A stretch of DNA of 64,000 nucleotides. Origin: Pseudogymnoascus verrucosus (taxonomy: Eukaryota). The notes under the pieces were generated by a model, which was not told the DNA's origin, ran no database searches, and saw only the letters and a list, made by a program, of their open reading frames with translations. Made by a program: the position numbers and the translations under genes. Below are positions 1 to 48,866 of this stretch, piece after piece. Position 1 is the stretch's first letter; every line of letters begins with the position of its first letter. The stretch is from NCBI GenBank assembly GCA_001662655.1, contig KV460214.1, one strand, 5' to 3'.

Positions 1-3000
1 ACATCCTTTCTCACCTTCTCCTCCCTCTTCTCCAGGCTTTCGAAATCCAGAAACTCCTGCTTATCATACACCTTAACTCCATGTTCCTCATCCAGCCTGT
101 CCATTTCCTTTCTATACTCCTTTCCCATGCTCACATTATCCTGTATGTCCCCGCCATATCTTTGACTCATGTACGACGAAACATGGGATTTACCCAGCGA
201 CTCCTTCCTACGCTTTACGCTCGATGCGTACAACGTCTCGATATTGCCAGTCATCTCTTCAAGGCAGTACTTCACCTCCCAGTCGTCGGTAGCTTTCAGC
301 TTGTCGGGACGAACCACCTGGTGACCGTTGACAAAGTTGCGGATGTTCAATTTGAATACTGCTAGACGGCCAACGGAGCCCTCAACGTCGCCCTCGCTTG
401 AGGTATTACAGTTCCGCGCCTCATCCGCCGCTGCTGTATCCGCATTTTCACCTGAAGATTCCGCAACAACCTCGTTGACATCACGGGCCATGGTCTCTGG
501 ATCTTCCCTTTCAGCACGGGCAACCATGAGATCCAGCATCTTGTTCATAGCCGCCTCAACCGGTGTGCCCTTTTCGACTTTGCCAAATGCATTGCGGATA
601 GTCTCTACGGACGCTGACTGGTCGAGATGGTTGAAGGCGTCCTCGAAGATTTCATTTTGATCGTCGGCGTTTACGGCTTCTGCGGCGTCTCTAATTGCGG
701 CGCGAAGGACCGCTTCTTGCCCGTCTGCATCCAGGCCAATTACTCGCCTCTCATATTCTTGGATTTGCTCGATATTGGTCTCCTGGATACCTTGAATGTC
801 CTCCTCGGCGACGGGGCGGGCGAAAATATACATGAAACAGTCGCCGTCAGAAGCACTCTTCGGCCTTGTTTCGAATTGTAGCTCCAAAGACTCTCCTGGA
901 AATTTCTCGGTTGCGCGGTCCAGCACTTTGTTCAAGAGCTCCAGGCTGACTTTAAATTCGGAGTCTCCCAGTGTAGTATCGTTAGACCCATGAAGAGACT
1001 GGTCCATATCCGGCAGGGGAAGATACTGGAAGCCAAATATCCTCTCCGTGTTATGGAACGCAACGAAAATGCCGTCCATGCGGCCCATCCGGACTTGAAG
1101 GGAGTATTTCAAGAAAGCAGAGCGGGACATGTCGTAGAACTCACGTTCGTACGAGTCATATTCACCGTACCGAGATGTGATCTCGTAACCCAGCCCTTTC
1201 TCATAATCTGTAGCGTCTCTGCGAATAGAGATGACAGCGCGAGTCTTAAGATCGTACATGCCTGTCCCAGGTAAACGAGGATCATGGGCATCAAGCTGCG
1301 AGCGCATAAGAAAGTCGCCAAAGGTTGTATAGTGATATGATTCGGGGCTGTTTTTGTCATCATCCGTAAGAGCGTGCGAATTTTCCTTTCGGTACTTTAT
1401 ATATTCTTCCTTGTCCGAAGTTAAGAACTTCTCCATTGATTTCCCAAGCCATTGGAGGACGTTGGATGTGTCAAATCCTTTGTTCGCATCAATAGCGTAA
1501 ACACCATCTCTGCGTCGAAGGAATATAGAAGCAGGCGCTCGTTGAATGGCAGTGAACGAGCTTAAAGGTCTTGGGAAGCCTCGTGATAGTTGATCATGGT
1601 TGACAGGCCGCCATTTTGATAGAAGGTAGTGGAAGTGTGCCAAAGCCGAGGTCATGCTAGATGTTGACCCAGTGTACTTGCTGCCCTCGGCAACTGCTGT
1701 ATCAATCAATGTTTTGTCTCGCGAAGAAGTGATGTATTCTTTCAGCGCGTTGTAGTCGAATTCTTTCACTGGTGTTATGGATTCCAAATAGGGGTCAAAA
1801 TTGTAGACGCGGGTATGGGGGTCCCGAAGTCGATAAACTCCCTGATTGAAGAGCACTCTTTCAAGGCCGCAAACAAGGCCAGGCACAGGTGGCTGAGGTT
1901 TCTCAACTGGAACCAACTTTAGCGCCTGTGCATGGACGCTTCCAGAACTGTAACCTTCCCCTTCCTTTAGTGGTTTAAACACAGCATCTATAGCTTCTGG
2001 CGTTGAATTTTTCAGGGCCGATTCTAGGTTTTCGTACGTTTTGAGCAAAGTCATAGATAGAGTCCTATCTGCCTTTTCAAGCTGCTCACGAGCAGCATCT
2101 TTAAATATGTCCTCACCCCCTTGTGCTAGCTCGAGGCCGCGCTTATTCAGCAATTTCTTTTCCTTCAAGACTTTCATAAGCACTGTCTTCGCAACCCGGT
2201 TGGCGGAGGAGCTAGTAATGGAATAAAGATAGGTTAAAAGTTGTCCTCTTTTCCTGCCCTGAACCCTTTTAATGAGCGGGGTGCCAGAGGGACGTATTAT
2301 CACCGTGTTTAGAACCCGCCGTGCGACAGGGTGTGATGATTGGGTCGGGGAGTTTCTGACTGTTGTCGACGACCGACCCCGAGGGGCCTTCACCACTGTG
2401 TACCGAACAAGTTGTCCTACTGATTTGGCCCCCTTTGTTCTTGAAGAACCAGTATCCGAAGACGGAGTGACAGATATATCATATAAGGCCTGCAATTTCT
2501 TCTGCCTATTTTTATTTGTTCTCCGCTTCTTGCTAGAACTTGGCGGGGGTTTCCCATCTGTTCCAGGGACACCCTCGTTGGAGTTCTGTAAGGGCTTTGC
2601 TGTTTGGTCTTGAGGATTTACCTGGACTCCCTTGGGCCGTTTCTTCGTTATGGTTTTCGATCCCTTGCCAGAGTTTGATGGCTCTAACGTAACTGCTGTT
2701 TCGCGGGCCTTGTCTCCTGGAGATGATTTGGATCGCCGCTTCGTTATCGGCTTCAGGGGTGCCGCTATTTTGTCGCTCTGGTCTGCTTGAGCTGATCCGA
2801 GGTGTTTCTTCGCGGCTTTCTGCAGCCAAGAATCCAAGGAACGTGCGCCTGTTGGCTCGGCTTTTGGAGATTCATTTTCGGCATTGTGGGTGGCTGCTGC
2901 TACATTGCTGCTCTGTCGCAACAAACGGGGTGAAGCGTTTTCACCCCTCCGGATTGTAGCATTCAGACATGATGTACACACGTACTGGCACCGTGATCCC

Positions 3001-3023
3001 ACTCGTGGTGCAATTGTGTACAT
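1..3023 (-). CDS. PET127: Mitochondrial 5'-3' exoribonuclease Pet127 (3' end runs off the window)
   Basis: Manual minus-strand translation from ATG 3023 (MYTIAPRVGSRCQYVCTSCL..., presequence-like). Contains PPVPGLVCGLERVLFNQGVYRLRDPHTRVYNFDPYLE..KEFDYNALKEYITSSRD..KYTGSTSSMT, typical of Pet127. Probably absent from the ORF track because no stop lies in the window. Confidence 0.9.
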   Translation of the reverse strand, partial: MYTIAPRVGSRCQYVCTSCLNATIRRGENASPRLLRQSSNVAAATHNAENESPKAEPTGARSLDSWLQKAAKKHLGSAQADQSDKIAAPLKPITKRRSKSSPGDKARETAVTLEPSNSGKGSKTITKKRPKGVQVNPQDQTAKPLQNSNEGVPGTDGKPPPSSSKKRRTNKNRQKKLQALYDISVTPSSDTGSSRTKGAKSVGQLVRYTVVKAPRGRSSTTVRNSPTQSSHPVARRVLNTVIIRPSGTPLIKRVQGRKRGQLLTYLYSITSSSANRVAKTVLMKVLKEKKLLNKRGLELAQGGEDIFKDAAREQLEKADRTLSMTLLKTYENLESALKNSTPEAIDAVFKPLKEGEGYSSGSVHAQALKLVPVEKPQPPVPGLVCGLERVLFNQGVYRLRDPHTRVYNFDPYLESITPVKEFDYNALKEYITSSRDKTLIDTAVAEGSKYTGSTSSMTSALAHFHYLLSKWRPVNHDQLSRGFPRPLSSFTAIQRAPASIFLRRRDGVYAIDANKGFDTSNVLQWLGKSMEKFLTSDKEEYIKYRKENSHALTDDDKNSPESYHYTTFGDFLMRSQLDAHDPRLPGTGMYDLKTRAVISIRRDATDYEKGLGYEITSRYGEYDSYEREFYDMSRSAFLKYSLQVRMGRMDGIFVAFHNTERIFGFQYLPLPDMDQSLHGSNDTTLGDSEFKVSLELLNKVLDRATEKFPGESLELQFETRPKSASDGDCFMYIFARPVAEEDIQGIQETNIEQIQEYERRVIGLDADGQEAVLRAAIRDAAEAVNADDQNEIFEDAFNHLDQSASVETIRNAFGKVEKGTPVEAAMNKMLDLMVARAEREDPETMARDVNEVVAESSGENADTAAADEARNCNTSSEGDVEGSVGRLAVFKLNIRNFVNGHQVVRPDKLKATDDWEVKYCLEEMTGNIETLYASSVKRRKESLGKSHVSSYMSQRYGGDIQDNVSMGKEYRKEMDRLDEEHGVKVYDKQEFLDFESLEKREEKVRKD

Positions 3024-3306
3024 GGCCTTAAGTCCCTAAGAATTGGGCGTGGATTTGAACTTGAGCAACATCGGCGAATGTGCTTGAAGGTTGTTCTTGG
3101 GAATTATTTTTCTTGACGTCCGCAGGCGCGCGCCACGCGCTGTTAGGCGCGTCAACCAGAAATTTAACCCGCAAGGTAAAAAAAACCAACGAATAGGAAC
3201 AGTCCAATCATGAGTCCCTTTTAAGGAAAATAATTATTACCACCACGACCCCATCAAACCAACAACCCCAACCGCCATATGGTGCGCCAGGATACTTTTT
3301 AACACT

Positions 3307-5477
3307 ATGAGCTGCAAGCTGCTGCGGCGGCCCTACCGAGCATTTTCCTTGCAGCGGGGCCTGAGAGTTCCGCCATTAAATCGAAGGGTTATTTGTACGA
3401 GGGGGTTTGCCTCTCTGTCGCCACATCCCAAGTCAGTAAATTAAACGCCCACAATCGATTGCGATATTAACTTTAATCCAGTGCGAATCCATACGATGTA
3501 ATTGTCATCGGCGGAGGCCATGCAGGATCAGAGGCATGCGCAGCCGCTGCGAGGTCTGGTGCGCGCACTGCCTTGATCACACCGAAGCTGGACAACATTG
3601 GCGTATGTTCATGTAATCCGAGTTTCGGCGGCATTGGGAAGGGTACTATGATAAGAGAGATTGATGCTCTGGATGGTGTGGCAGGGAGAATTATTGATAA
3701 GGCTGCTGTGCAATTCAGAGTGTTGAATCGGAAAAAGGGCCCAGCTGTTTGGGTAAGTGAATCTCTTTTCTTGTTGCGTTTCAAGAAGGTGTTCTAATGA
3801 TCATTTTATTAGGGCCCGCGAGCACAAATCGACCGAGATTTATACAAAAAACACATGCTGGATGAGTTACAAGGATACCCGAACCTTTCAATAGTCCCCG
3901 GGAGCGTTGCGGATATTATCGTCTCGAAGGAAACTCTGGACGGCCAACCCTCCTCGAAAATTACTGGAGTAAGACTTGAATCTGGCGAGATTATCCCTAC
4001 CAACCAAGTCATCATAACAACAGGAACGTTTTTGGGCGGTGAAATTCACATTGGCCTAGAATGTTTTCCATCTGGGCGCATAGGCGAAGCGGCGACATTT
4101 GGACTCAGCAAGTCACTGAAAGATGCTGGGTTTAAACTTGGGAGACTGAAGACCGGAACCCCTCCGAGACTGTCAAGGAGGACCATCGACTTCAGCACAT
4201 TAGAGCAGCAGCCCGGGGATGATCCCCCGATGCCGTTCAGCTACCTCAACGACGAGGTGACAGTCAAGGAGCAGATGTTCTGTTACTCAACATACACCAA
4301 TGAGAAGGCCCACGATATTATCAGAGACAACCTTGACAAGTCTATTCATATCCGGGAGTCTGTCAAGGGCCCTCGATATTGTCCATCGCTAGAGTCGAAA
4401 ATAATTAAGTTTTCGGACAAAAAGAGCCATATAATCTGGCTTGAGCCGGAAGGATTTGACAGCGATGTCATCTATCCCAATGGGATTTCTATGACCGTTC
4501 CAGCCGAGGCACAGGAGCAAATGCTTAAGACTATACGCGGGTTGGAAAACGCCACAATGTTGCAGCCTGGTTACGGAGTTGAATATGATTATGTCGACCC
4601 AAGGAACTTGAAGTCGACTCTCGAAACGAAATCTATAGCCGGGTTGTTCCTGGCTGGCCAGATCAACGGAACTACAGGGTATGAAGAGGCTGCTGCGCAA
4701 GGAATAGTCGCTGGGATCAACGCCGGTTTAGTTTCCCAGGGCCGGGAGCCGATGATTTTGTCAAGAAGTGACGGCTACATAGGCATAATGATTGATGACC
4801 TGATAACGAAGGGCGTATCTGAGCCATACCGGATGTTCACATCACGAAGTGAATATAGGATGAGCGCTCGCGCGGACAATGCGGATTTGAGGCTCACTCC
4901 TAAAGGGCGTGCGGCTGGAGTCGTGAGTGATGCGCGGTGGTCCAGTTTCCAGGATATATCCAGCCAAATGAATGAGCTGGAACAGATTCTTCGAGCTGAT
5001 ATACGCTCTGGCCCAGCCTGGATCGACGACGGATTCGAAGTTACAAAAGATACAACTAAAAGAAGCGCATTTGACATTTTGCGTCGTGCCGGGATGAGCA
5101 TAGACAGGCTGTCGAACAAAATACCAGAGGTGCTGAAGTACAGCAAAGCGATACAGGATCGGGTTGGAATCGAAGCGGTGTATGCACCATACATTGCCCA
5201 ACAGACTGCTTCAATGAAGGTCTTTCAGATAGATGAACAACTGCATCTTCCAGTTGATTTGGACTACGGCAAGGTCCATGGCATATCCATGCACGAGAGG
5301 TTTCTTTTAGAAGCCACAAGACCTGAGTCTGTCGGCCAAGCTCGGAGGATTGAGGGCATGACTCCGACGGGTTGCTTGAGGCTCCTAGCTCACGTACAGA
5401 ACACTCGCAAACGTGAAGCCAGGGCTATTTTATATGAAGAGAACACGGCCAATAAGAGGAGGGTCGCCGGCTTGTAA
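3307..5477 (+). CDS. MTO1: Mitochondrial tRNA U34 modification flavoenzyme (MnmG/GidA family), 2 introns
   Basis: [15 protein letters not shown] motif, [61 protein letters not shown]. Arg-rich presequence; introns near 3432-3481 and 3753-3812. Confidence 0.96.
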
Positions 5478-18493: not shown

Positions 18494-19029
18494 CTTGGAT
18501 GGTTCGCAGCTTCGGCCGCTGGGTATCGACGATTAATTCCTGTGTATTCCTTCTCCTCTAGCTTTTATTTATCTCGTAGTTTGAGAGGCGTAGCGTGCGT
18601 ATGAGGAATGATGTGACTTCGAGGTGGGAATTGAAGCTGGCTGGTTATTGTCTTGTTGCTGGCTTGACAGCTCTCGTCCCAGGCAGGACAGGGCAACGCA
18701 GCACCTCAAGCTCCAAACGCGGTTAAGCGCGCTCGCCCATGTGTAGGTGATTGTGGAGCCTTATACACAAGGCTGCAATCAGTGTAGAGGTTGCTCAAGC
18801 TAACCGCATCGGGTGTGCACGTCAGCTCTCGCGAGCCGCCGAGAGGCTGCGCAATCGACATACAACAGACGTCAGTCACGATCCAGCATACTCTGTAGCC
18901 GCCGCGCTCTAATACGATTAAAACGATAGAGGACAGAGATAAACGTCCAACTCTATCGCCTCGAGGAAACGACGAAATAGACACATAGCAGGTCCCCACT
19001 TAACAACCGCCAAGGTGCCTACCTTCAGA

Positions 19030-19660
19030 ATGGCTGCTGGTCTCAAGACCATCATAGCGCTCTCCTTCGTACGTCCGCCCCGAACTCAACGATCCTCGTC
19101 TACCCCGCCTACTCCCCACGCCGAACTCCCCACTAACTGATTCCAACAGGTCCTCGCCGTAGGCTTCCTCCTCGTCATCCTCTCATGCGCCCTGTGGCAT
19201 GCATACTACCCGCTTCTCGTCGTCGCCACCTACGTTGTCGCACCTCTCCCGAACTGGATATGTTCGCGGTGCGCAAATCCTGATGACTTCGGCGCAGAGG
19301 GCGGCGGCAATGCGATTTTGGACTTTGGGAAGTTCGTTACGGGTGGGCTGGTTGTTATGGGTATTGGTGAGTTTGGATCTCTCTTTTATGGACTGAGGGT
19401 GGAATGTTGTGTTGGTTGGGGATGAGAGGAGGGGTTCTGGGCGGGGAGAAAGTGGCCATGCGGAGGAATGGCAGGATGCGTTTACAGAGTGAGAAGAGAG
19501 GAAGATTTGCTAACTGCCATCTACAGCACTTCCCGCAGTTCTCGCACACTCCGCAATTATCACCATTCCAGCCATGATAATGTCCATCATCGGCGGCCTC
19601 CTCATCTACGGAACCATCGTTACCTTCGGAATGTTCTTCCAAGAGGAGCAGGAGTTCTAA
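19030..19660 (+). CDS. VPS55: Vacuolar protein sorting 55, 2 introns
   Basis: Manual splicing gives MAAGLKTIIALSF/VLAVGFLLVILSCALW..APLPNWIC..DFGKFVTG../ALPAVLAHS..FFQEEQEF*. Confidence 0.93.
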
Positions 19661-19828
19661 GTCATAGGCACGCTTCGTGGAGGTAGACGGAAAGTAAGGA
19701 TCTCAATTACGGATGGGACGGAGGGATGTGGATATCAGAGGCACCATGGACTTGGTACGGTGTATCATTAGCATCATGTCACCTAAAGCGATCAGTTTGC
19801 GAATTTAATAAATTGAAACCCATCCTCC

Positions 19829-20250
19829 GAGGAAGCTGCGACTGGTAAATCGTTCTTTCCATATATCAGGGTTGAGAGTTGCGAGGAGGCTGCAACTGAG
19901 CCTTTGCTTTGAAATCATTCTTTCCATATAGGGATTGAAACCTCTGAGGAAGCTACGACTGAGCTTGCTTGGTAATCGTTCTTGCCATATATAAGGCTAG
20001 AGATCTAAAGGAAGCTGCGACGGAGTCTTCTTCATAATCGTTCTTCCCTTATGTAAGGCTGAAGCCCTCCAAGGAAGCTGCGATTGAGTTTGCTCGGTAA
20101 TCGTTCTTGCCATGTATAAGGTTGAAAAGCTTGAGGAAGTTGCGACTGAGTTTGCTTGGTAATCGTTCCTTCCATATATGTATATTGCTGAAGATCTCGA
20201 GGAAGCTGCGACTGAGTCTGATTAGAAATCGTTCTTTCCATGTATAGGGC
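19829..20250. repeat. Degenerate tandem array of 7 units, ~62 bp each
   Basis: GAGGAAGCTGCGACTGAG..(GG)TAATCGTTCTT(T/G)CCAT(A/G)TAT core starts at ~19829, 19883, 19946, 20008, 20071, 20133 and 20199. Confidence 0.9.
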
Positions 20251-38416: not shown

Positions 38417-39256
38417 TCATCTGTACCCCCTCGGATTGCTGGGCAAGCCTTGCCGCCTTGGATCCTGTCCTTGTCCCTGTCTACCATTACCATACTGATC
38501 GCCTCCGCCACCATTTTGTGACCAAGGCGAGTTCGCAGATACGCCTGGACTCTCATTCGATCTGCCGCTGTTATAACTCTCCTGCCTTTCGTAGCCACCC
38601 CTCTGTGGTGGTGGTTGTGGGTTCCTTCCCGGGCTCATCCCAGGGCTCCTCCCTTGTGGTTGGTCCAGTGAACTTTGTGACGAGCTGTTGCTCTTAGCGC
38701 CGCCCCATAATCTCTGCTTCAGTCGATCCTGTGCCGAACCCGCACTGATCGTGGGCTGTAAGGCTAGCGAATTCTGGTATGACCCATCCCTCTGGCTCGG
38801 CAGCGGCCGCGCAGCCACGTATTCTTGTTGTTGTTGTTGCTGCTGCCCTCGTTGCATCCCGCCACCGGCTCGTAGCGCTGGAGATCCACCTGGTCTCCCC
38901 TGTCTCAAGCTTTGATTAACTGGCGTCGGTGCGGGGGACCCCGAGGAAGCTTTGTTGTCCCATAGGCTCGTTAGCTTGTTGCCGCTGCTCCCTGCATTTG
39001 CAAGATTGCCATATCCAGCTCCGACAGGTGCGCCGTAGTTTTGTTGTTGAACCTGTGGGGGTGGAGCGGCTTTTGGGTCGGGTGGCAGCCAAGGTGGAAA
39101 GGCTCTGCCCTTCTCGGTGTAGTATGCGCGTAGGACCCTGCAGATGTGTGTGTCGTCTGGGGTATCGCCATCAGCTTCTCCGGTCGGGAGGAGGTTGCGA
39201 AGAGAAGCGTAGCGGGTGGATGTCGTGGTGAGGAGGTTGGAAAGGTAGGATGACAT
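38417..39256 (-). CDS. MSO1: Mso1-like Sec1-binding exocytosis protein
   Basis: N-terminal EADGDTPDDTHICRVLRAYYTEKGRAFPPWL (Sec1-binding region), then a low-complexity tail. Confidence 0.85.
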   Translation of the reverse strand: MSSYLSNLLTTTSTRYASLRNLLPTGEADGDTPDDTHICRVLRAYYTEKGRAFPPWLPPDPKAAPPPQVQQQNYGAPVGAGYGNLANAGSSGNKLTSLWDNKASSGSPAPTPVNQSLRQGRPGGSPALRAGGGMQRGQQQQQQQEYVAARPLPSQRDGSYQNSLALQPTISAGSAQDRLKQRLWGGAKSNSSSQSSLDQPQGRSPGMSPGRNPQPPPQRGGYERQESYNSGRSNESPGVSANSPWSQNGGGGDQYGNGRQGQGQDPRRQGLPSNPRGYR

Positions 39257-39739
39257 GATTGCGTGTTGCCTATGTTGCTGTGCCCATGCAAGTGGTCGTT
39301 GTTGCGTTCAGTAGTTCGAGAGGTGACTTCTGTTAAGAAGTAAAGCTTTGGAGGCAATGAAGGTGCTCTGACTTCTGATCGCCGTGTTGAAGGAGGTGGT
39401 TGTGAATGAGGAGGGGATCGGTGTCTCAAGTGCTTCACCGAGGTGGGTAGACTCGTACAGAGTTGGGAGGTGGGGTTACGTAGCGGCTGTTACCGGTGGA
39501 TTAAGGTTTCACATCCAAGCGCTCCACCCAGATTTAAGGCCTGGCGCGCCAAGGCCACATTAATGGGATGCATATACTAAAGATTCATGGAGAACAGCAA
39601 AAGTTGGAGGAGTTCATTACTCAGTGGATTGTCTTGAATTATCTTTGCACTCTCGCGATTGCATATAATTGTTTTATGGTATCAACGTATGCTCCTATCA
39701 AACTATTTACAATCCCATGACACTCCCCAGCGACATATC

Positions 39740-40755
39740 TCATGTAGTAGTTGCGCGTGTCTCACCCTCAACCTCATACTCGACCTCCATCTTGGCGGTC
39801 TTCCTTGGCTTGCCCTTTGGCGCTGCTGGGCGCTTCCTCTTGGACCCGCTAAGCTTCTTTGCAATATCCTCCTCGTCGCTGTTGCTATCACTGTCCTCAT
39901 CATCATCCTCATCTTCATCAGTGCCCTCCTCAGCATCGCTTCCTAGCCAGTCCTCGAGATCGCCTAGATCTTCCTCATCTTCGCCCAAGTCGCTGACGTA
40001 CTCAACCATGCCGACACCCTCCTCCTCCTCCTCCATCTCTTCATCCTCCTCCTCTTCGATGCCCTCGTCCATATCCTCGTCTCTGGTACCCTCTCCCTGT
40101 CGCTCAAGGCCCTTGAGTACCTTCTTCCAGATAGACTCGCTGACGTTCAATGGCTGGTCGCCGTATGCGCCACTCCTCAATCGCTCAATCAGCTCCCTCT
40201 CAATGGCTCTCTCAACCTTCGCAGCAGCAAGCGCCTTTCTCTCTCTCGTCTCTTCTCTTCTCCTGACCTTGGGAGCAAGCTTTGGAACAACCCTCTCGCC
40301 TAACCTCTCATCCTCCTTTGCCAGTCTCCTCATCCTGATGCCGACTTGTGTCAACCTCGTAAGCCTTTGCTTGCACTTGTGCACCAAGAACTTTGGCCAG
40401 TATATTAATCTCTCATCGACTTGCTCGAGCGCTTTGACGTAGTTCTGCGACAGCTTTATCCTCTCCCACAGCTTTGATGGCATGTGAGCACGTTCGATTG
40501 TCTTCATGTAGAGGTAGAGGGTGCCCGTATCGGGATTGGAGCGGACGGTGGCATATCGGGAGTTGGCCAGAGGGCATGATTGTCTGTTGCAAAGACCAGT
40601 GACATTGTATTCGTTACGACAGAAGTTCTTCTCTTTCGTAGTTCTGGAAAATGTTAGTTTTGATTTATCACGAGACTCGGAGGTTCGCCATACTTGAGTT
40701 TGAACGAGCAAAACTGCTGGTTGATAACCTGCCAGACGATTTCGTCTGAAGACAT
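39740..40755 (-). CDS. MAK16: 60S ribosome biogenesis protein Mak16, 1 intron
   Basis: [21 protein letters not shown]/..[26 protein letters not shown]; acidic tail; VEYEVE. Confidence 0.97.
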
Positions 40756-41089
40756 TTTTGAAACGGTGAACCTATTCGAAGGTTCTGAAAACCGATTTTA
40801 GAAGTTTGCACAGTAGCCTCCGACTTTTTCGTTGCGATGCTTTGAGGCCGTGGAAAAAGGTTGTAGATTTCCTCGCTGATAAGAAATATTTCGTCTGGGG
40901 AACTTTTTTCGGATCAATTCACAATTCCAGGCAGCAACAAATCCCCGCCAGGCCGCCAGCCTTACCTAGCTTTAGGTACGTACCAACTACCAGCCAAATC
41001 CATCCCTGGCGCATCGCAAAGCCTCAGCCTTGCCAATCCAATCTTCAAACACCGATATTTACAGCGATTTTGTATGATATGTTGCGTCA

Positions 41090-42937
41090 ATGAAGCGAAA
41101 TGTTACTCTTATAGCACGGCGCGGTGCGCAAGCGGCTCTACTCAGTTATCTACGCAATGCGTCAAGGGCCAGCTCAAGGATCGGGCTGGATTTCTTGAGT
41201 CCATCACATATACCTTCCGGGCGCCGCCGGTTTCACAGCACAATACAGGCACAACAAAATGGAGAAAGCGTTGGTCGTGGCATTGTTTCGTTCTTTGATG
41301 ATACCATTTATGCAGTTTCGACGGCTCCGGGCAGGGCAGGGATTGCCATAATTCGAGTTTCTGGGACAGGATCCTTGGATGTGAGTGAACCAATGCCCCC
41401 TCCCCCTTCGCCGTTCTAACTGGCATAGGTATATCGTGCATTATGCCCCTCGAAAGCAATTCCTAAACCCCGATACGCCACTCTACGTACTCTCTACGAA
41501 CCAAACCCCACCAACAGCTCCAAACCGAGCGTCCTCGACTCAGATGCGCTCGTCCTCCACTTCCCTTCGCCGAAGACCGTCACCGGCGAGGAAATGCTAG
41601 AGCTGCACATCCACGGCGGCCCCGCAACAGTTAAGGCCGTTTTGGCAGCAATTTCACGGTGCAAATCTGCATCTACGATCCGCTATGCCGAGCCTGGAGA
41701 ATTCACAAGACGAGCATTCCAGAACAACAGACTTGACCTGGCGCAGGTGGAGGCGCTGAGTGATACCTTGTCTGCGGAGACGGAGCAGCAGCGCAGAGCA
41801 GCTGTGAGGGGAAACTCTGGCGCTCTGGGAAGGGCTTATGAAGGCTGGAGACAGCAGCTTCTTGAGGCGCGGGGAGAGTTAGAGGCGCTGATTGACTTCT
41901 CTGAGGATCATGACTTTGAAGATTCTGATCCGGATTTGTTGAAGAATGTGGGGGCTGTTGTTGAAAATATCCGGGCTTCTATCAAAGCACATGAGGAAGG
42001 GAGTCGGCGCGGAGAGATGCTGCGGAAGGGTATCAGAATATCCATGCTTGGACCTCCCAATGCTGGGAAGAGCTCGCTGTTGAATCGAATTGTTGGCAGA
42101 GAGGCTTCGATTGTCAGTACCGAGGCGGGGACGACGAGAGATATAGTCGAAGTCGGCCTTGATATTGAGGGGTATCTGTGCACTTTCGCTGATACGGCGG
42201 GGTTGAGATCGCCCTCGTCTGGAGTTGACAGGGAGCCCGCCACGATAAGAGACCGCATTGGAGAGGTGGAAGAAGAGGGGATCAGAAGAGCCAAAGCGAA
42301 AGCTGCGGAGTCTGATCTAATTATTGTGATGGCTTCAGTGGAACTTTCAAATGGGAAGGAGGGGTGGGAAATACGCTATGATACGGAGGCTCTCGACATT
42401 GCTACCAAAGCAGAGGAATACGTAGTGGTCGTCAACAAAACCGACATTATTCCCGAGACTATCTTCGCTCGGATCCTCCACAGCTTCAAGTCCTCGCTGC
42501 CTTCAGTCCCAGAGAACAAGATCATCCCCATTTCATGCAAATCGGATCTTGTATCGACACCCTCAGCTCAAGATGCGGGCAACATCTCATTCCTAATTTC
42601 TCACCTCACGTCCTCCTTCCAGTCCCTCACTACCCTTGGCGATGAAGACCTGTATGGAGTTACAGAGCGCCAGCGTCAACTTCTCTCAAGATGCGATGAA
42701 TACCTATCCCTGTACGAGAGCGAGACTCAAGAAGCCGATATGTCGCTGGATTTCGATATTGTGGTGGCGGCGGAGCATCTGAGAACCGCGGCGAATAATC
42801 TTAGTAAACTTACGGGCCGAGGGGAGGGTGGGGATGTGGAGGAGGTATTAGGGGTAGTGTTTGAGAAGTAAGATTTTCTGTCACCCCGTCAAATGATACA
42901 ATGCTAACAATCAAGCAGATTTTGTGTGGGGAAATAG
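41090..42937 (+). CDS. MSS1: Mitochondrial tRNA modification GTPase (MnmE/TrmE), 2 introns
   Basis: DTIYAVSTAPGRAGIAIIRVSG, ELHIHGG, PGEFTRRAF, GPPNAGKSS, AGTTRD, DTAGLR, NKTD; last exon FCVGK*. Confidence 0.96.
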
Positions 42938-43504
42938 ACAAAGACTTTGTGTATGAGAAGTGAGACTATCTATTGATGCAATCAATGCAAATACATATTC
43001 TAAAACAAAAACTACCCGCGATCCCATGAAAATATCCAATGCCAGTGAAAATCAAATGCGTAACTCCATCCCAATGCCCGTCCCTATGCATCTATTGATG
43101 CCAATGCGATGCCAATATCCGATACCAATGCTGACGCTAAACTGATGCTGATGCCCCAAGATAATGCCAGCCAACGCTCCAAGCCCTCAAAAACGGAAGA
43201 AAAGAAGCAGTCTAATTGCGATGCGATGCGAGAACGACGGCGCTAGTACGCCATACTGAAATGCGATGAAAATGCGAAGAATGACGATGGTGATTTGTTG
43301 AGTGACTCCATGATTTCAGCTCTATCCAGAACGCCGAGAATGCAGGTAGTAGTAATATAGCGTAAAGATGAAAAATTAATTTCGAATGAAGTAGAGTTGA
43401 GGACGCCAGAGAGAATGCCGTGAGGAGAGGTGAGATCTTATTTTTGTAACGCCAAGTTGAACCAAGATAGGTGATTGAAAGCTGCGTGACAAAGTAGGAG
43501 ATGC

Positions 43505-43672
43505 TTAGTTGTAACCTCCGCGTCCGTCCTCGGGCTCATCATCGTCGTCGGGTCCGCGGTTGTAGCCGCCGCGGCCTTGGTTCGTCATCTGCCCGGTGGT
43601 TGAAGCAGATGACCTGTCCAGGAGGGCACAGCCAAAGGTGGCCGAGGAGATGGTTGATGAGGTGAAAGACAT
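43505..43672 (-). CDS. 55-aa microprotein with two GRGGYN motifs (not in the ORF track)
   Basis: Manual translation: MSFTSSTISSATFGCALLDRSSASTTGQMTNQGRGGYNRGPDDDDEPEDGRGGYN*. Strong CACAATG start context, C/A-rich leader, TATATA at ~43867-43872. Confidence 0.75.
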   Translation of the reverse strand: MSFTSSTISSATFGCALLDRSSASTTGQMTNQGRGGYNRGPDDDDEPEDGRGGYN

Positions 43673-45371
43673 TGTGATGGGATAGTTGAGTGGTTTTGGA
43701 GGTGTGTATAAGTCTGATATGGTTGGAAGAAGTTGGAGATGTGTAGTTGAAGAGTGTGTTTGAGGTGAGAAGCGGTTGATGATAGTGTGAATGTGAGAAG
43801 TGTAATGAAGATGCTGATGCTGATGTAGAAAAAAAAAGAAGATTCAAGGAGAAGGTCTACGAGCCATATATACTTTTCTTGCCCATTGAGGCCCAGGCAA
43901 CAGTTCCCCTGCGGAACCCCGGATCTGGTGAGGAACTCGCGGCATTTCGTCACACACTCAGCCCTATGCCCACGCCGACGTAAACATGGCAACCCTGCAG
44001 GCACTTGCCCTCCAATTACAGAGCGATGCGGCGTCCTTTCCAGAAGTTGGTATTGCGCGGGATCTAGTCAGCGCAGCACAAGCAGGCATTAGGAACGTGG
44101 CTGGGCGGGATGGGATCTCAGGGAGTCTATTTCGGCACCGGTATTGTGGTCGTAAGGGCCACATGGTCGCACTCGTAATCTCACTCTGTGTCATGTACGA
44201 GTACCAACTTAGGCAGCCGGGGCCTGCAGGTACGATAACTTAGACCCAAATTCGGAGTTGTGGATCTGCGATGTAGTAGCTCTAATGTGGCAGTGTATGG
44301 GTGAAAGGCGCATAACACGATAACACGAGTCTTCTTTTCCATGATTCCGTAAGCCACCGAAACGCCAAAGTAACACGATTAGCATTTTCTGCGTTGCTGC
44401 GCTCTATTTTAGCGATGACAAGGCACAGGGCCATGACGGGAAGTACGTAGTGGAGTATTTAGCGGCGCATGATGCTAAAACGAGGTCTGGGACGGTTTGG
44501 GACGCCGGGGGAGCGAATCAGACGCAGCCAAGCGTCAGCAGAACAACAACCTGGGTTCTGGAAAGTCGAGATTCCGGAGGGGATTGGTCAACATACGCGT
44601 CGGATGGGGTCCATAAGACGGCTGAGGCGATTGGTGCGGCCCTTCTCTCGAGCCGACGGGACGCTCGGTATGGCAGGTCATTGGCGGCAGACCCCTGGAG
44701 AAGGAAGAAGCGCTATGCGCAAGCGCATTGCGCTTAATAATTTCGGCTAGCTTGCAAGGGGACCATTTCTATTTTTGGGCCCCAGCCTCAAATACTGTCA
44801 GCAAGTTGATGACAGTGCTTTTACAGTATCACTGCAGCGTTTTACGCCAGCAGGATGACTAACCTGATGACCGGTGGCTGGTGCGGTGGCAAATACGAAG
44901 ATTTGACTGTGTTGCTGTAGTAAGTGTAGTCACAGGTGTTTCAACTCGGGCCGTTAAGGCTTCAGCTGTGTCAAATGTCCCGTATTTCCTGCAGTTATCA
45001 TTAAGGTAGAAACATTTTCATTCTCCAGTAATCACAAAACAAGGGCCAAGATTCGAATCCTATATGCATTCGCCTGACTCCAAATTGTTACATACTTGAT
45101 TTGGAAGTGCTGCCTTGGGGTGACTCCTTTGCACAGTTTTCTGTTGATGTACCGGGACAATGTTGTATTTCTTCTGTAATTCCGTCCACCGAGAAGGATG
45201 AAGCATGACTATGTCTTATGTAAATGGCAAGGCGTACTGGTTTGCCTTGCCAGAGATCCTTCGGAGTAAACCCAAGGCGCGGCTCCGATGATTCTCAAGG
45301 ATCGCCGAGAGAGACAGATGCCAAGGCTTGGACAACAGTGGAGTAGTCCAAGAGGACCTTGTTACTTGAAC

Positions 45372-45411
45372 GTCTGATAACTAGTTATCAGATCAAATAG
45401 TTATCAGATCA
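45372..45411. promoter_or_regulatory. Clustered GATA elements: 20-bp perfect palindrome plus a direct repeat (ATCTGATAA-type)
   Basis: TCTGATAACTAGTTATCAGA at 45373-45392; TTATCAGAT at 45385 and 45401. Confidence 0.55.
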
Positions 45412-46162
45412 GACTAATAAAATATGTTTCCATGAATGGCTGCTCTCGAGCTGTGTGAATTCGTTTCAGGTTCCCATAAGGCGGGCATGGTGTGGCATAT
45501 GATAAGATTGTTGATATTGTAGAAACCATCAGAAAGCAGCATTGCAAGTTCGTTGCTCGGGGTGATACCAACAAGGAGACTATTGCTATGAAGTTTAAAA
45601 GATTTGGAGTATTGCAGTTAGTTGTGGGTCGTGGCGCGTGGAGCGATTGTGATGCTATCAACAGAAGGAGTCTCCTTTTCGTCAAAAGGTGCCCGAATAA
45701 AGCCAGGTCGTTGTAAACCCCACCCACCCACGACCAACAAATGAGAACAAAATTTCTTCATTCTGCTTGATTGTAATGATCTGAACTCTTAGAATATAGT
45801 TATAATAGTATACTTTCCCTCTCGCAAGTCTGTTGAAGCCCCGTGATTTGCTTTGGGGATTTAGAAGAGATGTGTACGATGAACGCAGTGTCTCCGTGGA
45901 AACAGTTTTCAATAGCAGAAACATAGCAGAGAAACAGCTAGATGGAGGGGATAGTAATTTACTACCAAAAGTGAACTGCTAGTGCGCTGCGTGCCAACTT
46001 GTGAAGCTTGTAGTAACATTTCAACTTCACCTCCTTTCGCTCAACACTACCACCACCACCACCAAGATACTTTTTTCCCAACCAAACTCACATCATAACC
46101 TTTAATTACTTCCTGCAAAGACTGTGCTATACATTAAACGTATCTTCATTCTCACCTACATA

Positions 46163-46916
46163 ATGGCAGATAAAATACCCAAGACGATAGCCCTCGGGTT
46201 GACGAAAAAGGCCGCTGATGGACGGATTATATCTATCAACCATCCTAATCCCACGGGAAAGGTTCTCAATAAGAAACAATACCGGTCCTTAAAGAATGAT
46301 CGTGTCATGCTTCTTCCACAAAACTACCAAGCACGCGACTCTAACGCTCAAAATGGTGAATGGCAATGCCCGGTGGACGGATGTGATACGGTCTTCACGC
46401 GGAAGGCCGGGCTGTTGATGCATATGGAAAGGGTAAGTTATATCTAAATATTAAGAAGCAATTACTTACAGTGAATAGCCAACTGGCCACAAAGATGACT
46501 TGCTGCGGGACACTGGGAGCGGAACATTTGAAAAGATTCGTAAGTAGCCATCGGAACTGCTCAGAAAGACTACTAACTAGGAGCAAGATCCAGCTCTCAT
46601 TGATAATGGGGCCGCAGACTTCATCAACAACCAGGCGGACGACTTCATCAACAACAAGGCAGACGACTCCATCAACAACATGGCCGAAAGGGTTAACGGT
46701 ATCGATGGAGAAGACTTCCGCGAGGACAAACAGATCGAGGCCCCAGCCTCCGACGGAGGAGAGTCACCTCAGCGTCAGACTGCTGACATCCAGTTTGAGT
46801 ACTGGATGATAAGAGAAAAGGATTATGACAATGAATTTATTGAAGACTTTGAGTGGGTGATGTCGATCCACGAAGGAAGGTTTGATAACCTATACGGTGA
46901 CGTGCACAGGAAATGA
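46163..46916 (+). CDS. Orphan protein with one C2H2-like zinc finger, 2 probable introns
   Basis: WQCPVDGCDTVFTRKAGLLMHMER followed by a GTAAGT donor at 46433; second GTAAGT...CTAACTAG intron at ~46540-46580; three (D)DF/SINN repeats; stop at 46916. Confidence 0.55.
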
Positions 46917-47049
46917 AAAGGGACAAGAGCTGAACAAGAGATAATCGAAAGATATCTTATTCAGATCTTCTTCCTTTTCATTTCCTATGCAGGTCACCGT
47001 ACAGGTTATCAAACCTTCCTTGGTAGGTCGACATCACCTACTCGAAGTT
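46845..47049. repeat. Long ungapped inverted repeat (98-bp arms, 9-nt loop)
   Basis: 46845-46942 matches the reverse complement of 46952-47049 at 84/98 positions by manual alignment. Confidence 0.93.
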
Positions 47050-47489
47050 TAGCGATGGAGCAGGAGGGCTTGTTTCTTTCGTTTCGTTTTTATATATATA
47101 CCCATGGGCATTGTGTTTCGAGGATTGGTCGTTACTGCGTTTTGGGAGGTTACTGCGTTTTAGGAGGTTTTTGGTCGTTGCTGTGTTTTTGGGGAGGCGT
47201 TTGGTCGTTATTGAGTCGTGATAGACTGTGGAGGGACATTATGGTCGTTACCTAAGTTCAGATAGTCCGTGGTGGGATATTTGGCAGCAGCGAGGTGCTA
47301 CGGACGAAAGCATAACCAGAGCAAGAACACTGAACAGTTGTATTAACATTTGAGTTTCACTATATTAACGGAACAACTCTCCTATGTGCTGAATCACCGC
47401 GTGATTGCTCTGAACATTCTTAACCAAAGTCTGGGTTCCGAATCCGTTCAATTTAACTGTCCCCCTCACTCCCCATCCCGACCCCTCCT

Positions 47490-48392
47490 TTATCTCGGTC
47501 TGGTATCCGGGCTTCGCTCTCTCCTCTTCCTTTCCCTGCTGTGTCCCCTGTCCCGACTGCGATCCCTCTGTCGATTATCCGGACTCCTCTCACGTCGTCT
47601 CCGTTCTCTGCTGTGACCCCTCTCCCTGCTGCTTCTCCTTTCCCGACTCGATTTCCGAACTCTCTGGGACTCTCTATCTCCATCGCCCCGCCTGTCTGGA
47701 CTCCTGCTCCTGTCCCCCGTATCCCGATGCCGATACCTGTCACTCCGCTCGTGCCGATAGCCCCTCGAACTTGAACGTGGCCTATCCCTCCGACTGTGGT
47801 GATGGCGATGCCTGTGCCTAGCCCTTCTGTCCTCATCATCGTCACCCCTTCGCCTGTGGCCCCTATCATCGTCACGCCTAGATTTCCGTTCATCCGCCAC
47901 AGCCAAGCCGCCTGGTCCGGCACCTTCCAAACCATCATCCAACACGAGTTTCTGATCATTATCACCGACCGCACCAACAAATCCCCCAAATCTCCCCTGT
48001 CCCTCCGTCTCCTGGTCCCCAGGCTCAACATCCTGCACCGCCTTCCTTATTTCCCGTTGCCCCACAGGCGTAGCATTCGCATCGCTAACCCTCTCCTTCA
48101 CCGGCAATCCCAGAGCGCGAGCAAGGGCATCCTCCTCAGCCTCCTTAATCGCCTTGATCTCCTCCTTCCTCAGCCTCTGTTTCTTCTCCTCCTCCGTCTC
48201 TCCTTCGCCCGCCGGCGTGTCGTCCGCCTTGGCGTACCAGTTCAAATCGCGGTTCTTCTGCCACCGACCGACGGGGGCCATGAGCGAGTGGCCGAGGTAG
48301 TTTTCGCGGCGGGTCGAGGACTCGACGTCGGACCATTTGAAGTCGACTCCACCACGGGAGCCTTCTTTGCGGATGGACGAGACGAGATCCAT
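47490..48392 (-). CDS. MMtag-domain (C1orf35/MMTAG2-like) protein with an RS/RD-rich tail
   Basis: [41 protein letters not shown]. Confidence 0.88.
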
Positions 48393-48866
48393 GGTCGGAC
48401 TGGGTCCGGAGGGTGTATGGGTTTGTTAGGTGTTGCTCAGTAGTAAGATGAGACTCAATTACACGCCGAGAATGGCTTTCTTCTGCTGATTTAGGGCTTC
48501 GATTCGTTCAGTATGGGGTTGATAGATTTATGACGACAGTACTCGGAGCGCGGTCGAACTATTTACCGGTCGAGTACACAAGTGGGTTGCTGCGGCTGGC
48601 GCTTAATGTTTATTTTTGGGGGTCTCCACTGGGCTGGGGTCCTCCGCCCATGTCCCCCACGAAGAATTTCAAAGTCTATTTTCATTATACAGAAGGGGTG
48701 AAGCTATATCGCACATTGTAACAGCCTATTATTGCTTGTATAGATTTACCTGCCTCCCTTGCCATATTCTCTGGCCGCTATAAAGCTAAGTACAACTCAG
48801 TGCTCATTAAAACACACAAAATCAAGTAACACCTTTCCGCCCATGCTATGCCCCTACTCGTGTCAT

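Follow-up and report, generated by a model that had tools for sequence, protein, structure and literature searches.

A 55-residue GRGGYN-repeat microprotein of Pseudogymnoascus verrucosus and its relatives across the Pezizomycotina

Disordered fungal proteins built on a repeated Gly-Arg motif are a known kind, of which Par32/Amu1 is an example. In the excerpts of its description available to us (PMC4501750), four GRGGAGN(I) motifs are needed, via their Arg, to bind and inhibit the ammonium transporters Mep1/Mep3, and R-to-A replacement in all four abolishes the binding and inhibition of Mep1. The pattern given in the same excerpts is G-R-G-G-X-[AG]-N-X(30,110)-G-R-G-G-X-[AG]-N. Excerpts of a second paper (PMC6249832) report that the motifs are needed for nuclear enrichment and for TORC1 reactivation via an unidentified interactor. 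Here, a 64,000-nt stretch of Pseudogymnoascus verrucosus contig KV460214.1 (hereafter the window) was analysed around a minus-strand open reading frame (ORF) at 43505-43672, which encodes a 55-residue protein with two copies of the hexapeptide GRGGYN. Its family, motif and micro size appear to be undescribed. Full-text searches with motif strings and with the locus tags of named orthologs (supplements lay outside their scope) found no paper on the family, and the motif strings were matched only in papers on nuclear localization signals (NLS), condensates or delivery.

Fungal peptide precursors and hydrophilins are further points of comparison. The ustiloxin, phomopsin, asperipin and victorin precursors have a signal peptide and a KR/RR site per core, and the dikaritin genes are clustered with UstYa and tyrosinase genes. 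MSDIN precursors are ~35 aa long and carry one hypervariable, Pro-flanked core that is cut out by prolyl oligopeptidase. To count as a hydrophilin, a protein must have more than 6% Gly and a mean hydrophilicity index greater than 1.

The 55-aa ORF was verified on the minus strand, the strand having been absent from an earlier note on this DNA. It runs from an ATG at 43672 to a TAA at 43507-43505 and encodes MSFTSSTISSATFGCALLDRSSASTTGQMTNQGRGGYNRGPDDDDEPEDGRGGYN. GRGGYN copy 1 (residues 33-38; 43559-43576) and copy 2 (residues 50-55; 43508-43525), which forms the C-terminus, are joined by the acidic spacer RGPDDDDEPED (residues 39-49; 43526-43558), one of the commonest last spacers in the family described below. 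Exactly as claimed in the earlier note, the two copies are encoded differently, by GGC CGC GGC GGC TAC AAC (43576-43559) and GGA CGC GGA GGT TAC AAC (43525-43508); the three differences are synonymous and all fall on Gly third positions. The GC content was 0.60 for the ORF, 0.71 at its third codon positions and 0.39-0.42 in the flanks. A repeated hexapeptide appeared by chance in 156 of 1,000,000 composition-preserving shuffles of the protein, and the many homologues are a stronger argument for a real ORF than this statistic. We consider it nearly certain that 43672-43505 (minus strand) is a real, conserved, protein-coding micro-gene. Pfam gave no family for the 55-aa protein at E<=10, and Rfam and tRNA scans of 42800-47500 gave nothing above threshold.

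A word-index search retrieved 17 homologues of 41-75 aa, each with two to four (F)GRGGYN units and all with the C-terminal block GRGGYN[RK]G(P)DDD(D)E.EDGRGGYN. In the resulting 18-sequence alignment, the invariant columns were both motifs (G-R-G-G-Y-N and D-G-R-x-G-Y-N), G14 and the acidic run. A first profile built from this alignment was scored against 1.84 billion cluster representatives, of which 100 matched at E<=1e-3, 29 at <=1e-10 and none at <=1e-30. The broader profile A2, made from 39 sequences, matched 318 clusters at E<=1e-3 among 8000 candidates scored, and 120 clusters were listed. All source names among the matches listed were "hypothetical" or "uncharacterized". Within these matches, GRGGYN-type members came from Leotiomycetes (Glarea lozoyensis, Hymenoscyphus albidus, Bisporella, Hyphodiscus) and GRSGYN-type members from Sordariomycetes (Neurospora crassa, Fusarium, Colletotrichum and many Xylariales, such as Hypoxylon, Daldinia and Xylaria). 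By these sequences, the motif type is split between the two classes. The window gene belongs, as the local ortholog, to a family of acidic, glycine-rich, disordered proteins that is widespread in the Pezizomycotina, and conservation in other fungi, on which the earlier note had made its proposal depend, is borne out by hundreds of homologous ORFs. In the ESM Atlas, the window protein matched one Ascomycota cluster with a score of 0.86, which serves as a lead only. A PDB sequence search with profile A2 returned two phage portal proteins only (E 0.11-0.18), and these were taken as chance matches.

The anatomy of the motif was counted in 114 proteins (P0001-P0114; P0024 is the window's own ORF with an upstream extension). 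A total of 106 were kept, being at most 200 aa long and having at least two motifs. Set aside were P0032, with a GRGAYN/GRGSYN variant, the long proteins P0033, P0051, P0056, P0062 and P0099, and P0054 and P0105, with unrelated repeats. Family members are 41-150 aa long and carry 2-6 copies of (F)GR[GS]GYN with acidic spacers between them. Two copies were found in 16 proteins, three in 54, four in 33, five in two and six in one, which bears out the variable core number that the earlier note had set as a test; the window protein, with two, stands at the low end. The protein ends exactly at GR.GYN in 77 of the 106, so that a last core at the C-terminus, as noted earlier for the window, is the usual state of the family. 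Among the other 29, many are of the GRSGYN type with a short acidic tail, and the rest resemble read-through or mis-called models. The motif is preceded by F (148), D (66) or Y (26) and succeeded by K (134), R (56), G (30) or A (27). Spacer length varies between 5 and 38 residues around a median of 12, and 211 of 236 spacers carry a net negative charge. These counts point to an invariant unit G-R-[GS]-G-Y-N, usually with Phe before it and Lys or Arg after it. The N-terminal part proper is short, and apart from a weakly conserved M-[SA]-x-F-[ST] it varies; of 124 small members, 71 begin with MA and 32 with MS, often as MAAF, MSFT or MSFS.

Residues 13-20 of the window protein, FGCALLDR (43613-43636), had been taken for part of a conserved leader. 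The alignment places them against FGRGGYN(K) of the relatives, with G14 invariant, and gives them another origin. At this position, 15 of the 17 aligned relatives have their first FGRGGYN core, and the exceptions are the two closest relatives, P0001 (FGCALLN) and P0002 (GVASYY). One syntenic relative (locus L001, see below) retains FGRDGYNK. FGCALLDR is thus read as a decayed first repeat, because the position aligns with the first core in 15 of 17 relatives and with FGRDGYNK in L001. On this alignment, three motifs were ancestral; the first is gone from the window lineage, and the two C-terminal ones are retained.

GRGGYN repeats were also seen outside the small members. Ser/Pro-rich proteins of 274-357 aa carry 8-9 copies (P0033, P0099, P0115-P0118); their architecture is Par32-like, they do not fit the published Par32 pattern, and the sources give them no name. 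The ESM Atlas gave no match for the Ser/Pro-rich member P0118. The His/Glu-rich protein P0062 has 11 GRGGYN copies, and the MBOAT-family protein P0051 has a C-terminal tail of GRGGYN repeats. Three proteins (P0046, P0067, P0074) combine a signal-peptide-like N-terminus with repeated (D/E)GR[GS]GYN and end in ...GYN, and in P0067 KR or RR stands behind nearly every GRGGYN, the layout of Kex2-processed repeat proteins.

Selection on the peptide was assessed with eight related loci from metagenome contigs (L001-L008), each with one family gene. Six genes entered the codon analysis (window, L001, L002, L003, L006, L008); L004 and L005, whose proteins duplicate L003 and L006, and L007, which is cut by the contig end, were left out. 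Over 19 gap-free codons (GRGGYN and DDDE.EDGR.GYN), the mean proportion of synonymous differences (pS) was 0.58 and that of non-synonymous differences (pN) 0.037, a ratio of 0.064 that is biased downward because the codons were picked for being conserved. Variation is concentrated at third codon positions of the ORF frame. At conserved sites, Arg is encoded by CGA, CGC, CGG and CGT and Gly by GGA, GGC and GGT, and the motif copies inside every gene use different synonymous codons. Motif Asn is AAC in 19/19 cases and Tyr TAC in 16/19. The fungi compared are well diverged, since their MnmE proteins are 77% (L001), 63% (L006) and 62% (L008) identical to that of the window. As synonymous divergence is near-saturated, it is the peptide and not the DNA that is held, in agreement with the selection on the peptide claimed earlier.

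These data also bear on whether the ORF could be a chance one, or a non-coding conserved DNA or RNA element. It has only 55 codons, which speaks for such an origin. Against this stand the hundreds of homologous ORFs and the pN/pS of 0.06. The start, stop, TATA box and leader are conserved while the flanks are unalignable; in blastn of 42872-46160 against the eight loci, the sole match was 43603-43486, the 3' half of the ORF. A chance or non-coding origin is hardly credible.

AlphaFold2, run with the family alignment, returned a mean predicted local distance difference test score (pLDDT) of 57.2, a predicted template modelling score (pTM) of 0.11 and no secondary structure, and thus predicts the window microprotein to be intrinsically disordered. 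Six invariant residues and a fixed free C-terminus in a variable disordered chain are the signature of a short linear motif, and the repetition of GRGGYN in unrelated disordered contexts is the behaviour expected of a portable binding motif. By analogy, we tentatively favour, with a little less than even confidence, a reading in which the disordered protein acts uncut and its GR[GS]GYN units are docking motifs to which a conserved partner binds. The place of action would be the cytosol or nucleus, where one small, multivalent chain would present several of these short linear motifs. The Arg, Tyr and Asn of each unit, the free C-terminal Asn included, would be inserted into the partner, and the acidic spacers would maintain solubility and tune binding. 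The mode of action would be like that of Par32/Amu1, whose repeated GRGGAGN motif depends on its Arg for binding and inhibiting Mep ammonium transporters.

The comparison with Par32/Amu1 was made by its published pattern and description. According to the excerpts of both papers, the likeness lies in a fungus-only, disordered protein with a repeated short Gly-Arg-Gly-Gly-x-(x)-Asn motif (PMC4501750, PMC6249832). Residue 295 of Par32, its last by the numbering in the excerpts, is Asn, and the window protein also ends in Asn. The differences, as far as the excerpts describe Par32, are several. The family motif is G-R-[GS]-G-Y-N with an invariant Tyr, whereas that of Par32, G-R-G-G-X-[AG]-N, is one residue longer; motif spacing is 5-38 residues in the family (11 in the window) against 30-110; and 55 aa with acidic spacers contrast with ~295 aa and Ser/Pro-, Asn- and Lys-rich ones. 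By pattern and description, membership in Par32/Amu1 was rejected. Where the published pattern would be expected, G-R-G-G-Y-N-R and G-R-G-G-Y-N-end stand in the window protein with 11 residues between them, and the protein has 55 aa, two intact copies, no Lys and three scattered Asn.

Several points weigh against docking. The GRGGYN motif is one residue shorter than that of Par32 and its spacing far shorter, so that the analogy goes by resemblance alone. An invariant core, variable copies and a C-terminal core are equally expected of a multi-core peptide precursor, and a signal-peptide form with KR/RR after each GRGGYN exists (P0067). The high hydrophilicity fits a non-specific protectant too. 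RNA data belong here as well. Three raw RNA sequencing runs (X21, X22, X24; ~2-6% of each examined), labelled with the species of a close holder, gave 0 reads over 42600-44400; they are no test of ORF expression, because the 3' end of MnmE also received none. In run X2, whose RNA label is a guess, a 331-nt contig covered 43445-43775 (depth 10.2, 1 mismatch) and a 494-nt contig covered 42980-43473 (depth 3.8, 15 mismatches), and none lay over 43776-44400. The X2 contigs are suggestive: they fit a short transcript but are no proof, the RNA label being a guess.

The same anatomy can be read as that of a multi-core precursor cleaved to GRGGYN peptides, possibly modified on Tyr, Arg or Asn, which would be either a leaderless cytosolic ribosomally synthesized and post-translationally modified peptide (RiPP) or an unconventionally exported signal. 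The core is invariant across fungal classes and kept by peptide-level selection, spacers and N-terminus are more variable, there are 2-6 cores, and the last one terminates the protein in most members. P0046, P0067 and P0074 add a signal-peptide-like N-terminus, and the KR/RR layout of P0067 would yield ...GRGGYN ends. The window protein and most members, however, lack an N-terminal hydrophobic run. A crude test found no run of at least 8 hydrophobic residues within the first 30 of the window protein, in agreement with the absence of a signal peptide claimed earlier, and flagged 2/106 members. Of 265 internal cores, only 7 have two basic residues behind them, that of the window protein being followed by R-G, and the flanks of the cores show neither Pro nor another known cleavage signature. 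Strong constraint also acts on the acidic spacer, DDDE.ED. For secreted signals, invariance this extreme across classes is unusual.

A Pfam scan of the neighbourhood bears on the precursor reading too. It covered 15 ORFs over 32-61 kb of the window and 24 ORFs of at least 170 aa in L001-L004, L006 and L008. UstYa/DUF3328, tyrosinase, prolyl oligopeptidase and methyltransferase were found neither within ~12 kb of the gene in the window nor among these 24 ORFs. P450 matches occurred in L002 and L008 only and were not common to the loci, and the conserved neighbours were housekeeping genes. The modifying enzyme that the earlier note had proposed to look for therefore did not emerge: no tailoring gene is common to the window and the related loci in these scans. 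Of that note's proposal of a RiPP or signalling-peptide precursor, the genuine gene, the selection on the peptide and the variable core number stood, and the leader and the features of known RiPP classes fell away. We regard a peptide precursor as unlikely.

Known precursor classes were compared individually. Kex2-processed repeat proteins, including dikaritins, are likewise small, with several spaced copies of a short invariant core whose number varies between species, but their layout occurs only in rare family-like proteins such as P0067. Assignment to this class was rejected, the window gene having no signal peptide (crude test), no KR/RR at its cores and no UstYa/tyrosinase cluster. MSDIN precursors resemble the family as small cytosolic precursors with no signal peptide and a conserved Met-Ser start, and differ in that the family core is invariant, repeated and free of Pro flanks. 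The MSDIN/cycloamanide class was rejected, as the window sequence and the alignment show neither a Pro-flanked core nor an MSDIN leader. The borosin class was also rejected, a 55-aa protein with no Pfam domain having no fused N-methyltransferase.

The third motif residue speaks to a further reading, raised as an alternative in the earlier note, in which the protein is an Arg-Gly-Gly (RGG)-box substrate or decoy of Hmt1/PRMT1, or an RG-type cargo or competitor of Kap104/transportin import. G-R-G-G is a classical RGG context. An NLS of the PY type follows the rule of a C-terminal [RKH]-X(2-5)-P-Y. The PY-NLS of yeast Hrp1, as listed in excerpts of PMC8140498, contains the identical heptapeptide GRGGYNR in a Gly/Arg-rich disordered segment. 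That segment, however, is of basic character with P-Y at its end, whereas the microprotein is acidic and has no P-Y dipeptide, so that it is not a PY-NLS, and many members have GRSGYN. The window protein has just two RGG, 14 residues apart, in a net acidic chain. The 342 motif instances have, at position three, 183 G, 142 S, 10 R and 7 D, and it is Tyr and Asn that are conserved instead. Since the Sordariomycete branch has Ser in place of the second Gly throughout, the family's conserved unit is not RGG. The methylation idea is weakened by these counts, and we consider an RGG-box protein very improbable.

Upstream of the gene, a TATATA box (43867-43872, minus strand) lies 200 nt from the ATG, whose context is CATCACAATG. 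The 194 nt separating the two (43673-43866, minus strand), taken as the predicted core promoter and 5' leader, are C/A/T-rich, with 4.6% G and no ATG. The plus strand has a GC skew of +0.40 to +0.48 across 43500-43950, the same asymmetry as that of the G-poor leader. All 7 loci with upstream flank have TATA[AT]A at -167 to -229, often inside AAGTATATA, and leaders with 4-11% G in the last 200 nt and no ATG in the last 145 nt. The 6-mer TATATA occurs in all 7 promoters, which none of 200 shuffles reproduced. No stop-to-stop ORF of at least 150 aa lies between 44067 and 47453, and up to ~46160 there are small ORFs only. Long upstream DNA lacking a large ORF recurs: the window has ~2.5 kb of it and L001 ~6 kb, and in L003 ~4.9 kb of normal GC content are followed, further out, by a block of 3-25% GC. 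The CACAATG context, the TATA box (now placed at -200), the G-poor leader and the ~2.5 kb of gene-poor upstream DNA are as the earlier note had described them. This architecture is probably that of a TATA-driven, well expressed and regulated gene, with the family ATG as the first AUG.

A k-mer search for further common promoter elements gave, beyond TATATA, only AGGGCTGA, in 5/7 promoters, and CT-repeats in the leaders. Neither is claimed as a site, the positions of AGGGCTGA being scattered. CATA[GA]GGCTGA...GAATGCCG is common to the window (43958-43965, minus strand) and its closest syntenic relative, L001, ~90 nt upstream of the TATA box. The exact AGGGCTGA 8-mer was also present in L003, L006, L007 and L008, again at scattered positions, and may be a promoter element.

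Composition and promoter together suit a hydrophilin-type protectant or condensate former, that is, an abundant, stress- or development-induced disordered protein with no dedicated partner, which would shield macromolecules or phase-separate via Arg/Tyr stickers and acidic blocks. The window protein is net acidic, with an isoelectric point (pI) of 4.2, 16% Gly and a grand average of hydropathy (GRAVY) of -0.98, which is borderline by the hydrophilin criteria; its residues 1-32 have a GRAVY of -0.02. The family median is -1.38, with 113 of 124 small members below -1, and the median pI is 4.5. Predicted disorder fits as well, as do the TATA box, the CT-rich, AUG-free leader and the AAC and TAC bias, which match a highly expressed regulated gene, and the long upstream stretches with no large ORF. 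Hydrophilins such as yeast Sip18, Stf2 and Hsp12, and LEA-like proteins, are likewise small, very hydrophilic, Gly-rich and disordered, but their definition is compositional and asks for no invariant hexapeptide or fixed C-terminus. Protectants and stickers tolerate substitution; here, six residues and the C-terminal end are invariant from Leotiomycetes to Sordariomycetes, bar the G/S at position 3. Since this invariance of six residues and an exact C-terminus indicates a specific contact, a non-specific protectant is disfavoured and seems rather improbable.

A wider reading is possible, if doubtful: GR[GS]GYN would be an unrecognised fungal short linear motif and the microprotein its minimal carrier, either as a 55-residue plug or decoy or as a precursor founder. 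In the bold plug version, the protein would sit Par32-like on a membrane or nuclear partner, with its motif Arg and Tyr inserted; candidates would be Mep/Amt channels or the unidentified Par32 interactor. In the equally bold precursor version, it would be the founder of a new class of fungal precursors, cytosolic, with several cores and no leader, from which a peptide with a ...GYN end is released; secreted cousins of the Kex2 type, such as P0067, would arrive at this peptide along the classical path.

Microproteins under annotation cut-offs are routinely missed. In this case, the motif is nearly letter-perfect across at least two classes of filamentous ascomycetes, including the pathogens Fusarium and Colletotrichum and the model Neurospora, and the invariant hexapeptide with its fixed C-terminal end implies that a specific binding partner or a processing enzyme has been conserved with it. 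If the partner acts in nutrient transport or TORC1 signalling, as with Par32, or if the cores are released, the family would represent a new regulatory or natural-product class. New in the present analysis are the decayed first repeat, the GRGGYN/GRSGYN split, the synonymous and non-synonymous counts, the conserved promoter architecture and the positional orthology relative to MnmE.

That orthology rests on the downstream side. The convergent neighbour in the window is a TrmE-type GTPase gene, MnmE/MSS1 (41429-42871, plus strand), followed by Mak16 (39740-40771, minus strand) and Mso1 (38417-39307, minus strand), all identified with Pfam. Six loci have 2 kb or more of downstream flank, and in five of them (L001, L003, L004, L006, L008) a tail-to-tail MnmE gene lies 437-747 nt beyond the stop codon; L001 and L006 continue with Mak16 and Mso1 as in the window. 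The exception, L002, has a Zn-cluster gene and a P450 gene 5.7-9 kb downstream and no MnmE. MnmE is taken as a synteny anchor, not as a functional part. As judged by tblastx of 43673-48500 against the loci, which gave only 46292-46444 (L001 15587-15742), the upstream side of the micro-gene is not syntenic.

Further observations concern the surrounding DNA. In L003, very AT-rich blocks (1-5000 and 19001-20090; GC 3-25%) bracket a gene region of normal GC and look like an AT-isochore or repeats degraded by repeat-induced point mutation. In the window, an inverted repeat with 97-nt arms (46846-46942 and 46952-47048; 87% complementary, 9-nt loop) overlaps the end of a small ORF (46680-46916, plus strand). 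It gave sub-threshold Rfam matches resembling microRNA precursors on both strands; the best reached 34 bits, where the gathering score is 96. A 22-nt T/G-rich unit (TTGGTCGTTACTGCGTTTTGGG-like) occurs in four loosely tandem copies at 47125-47222, just beyond the 3' end of an MMtag-domain gene (47490-48425, minus strand). The small ORF at 46163-46447 (plus strand) has no Pfam match and contains a C2H2-like CPVDGC...H..H segment. It accounts for the weak tblastx match to L001, where its counterpart lies on the opposite side of the micro-gene, and is probably a real gene whose position is not conserved.

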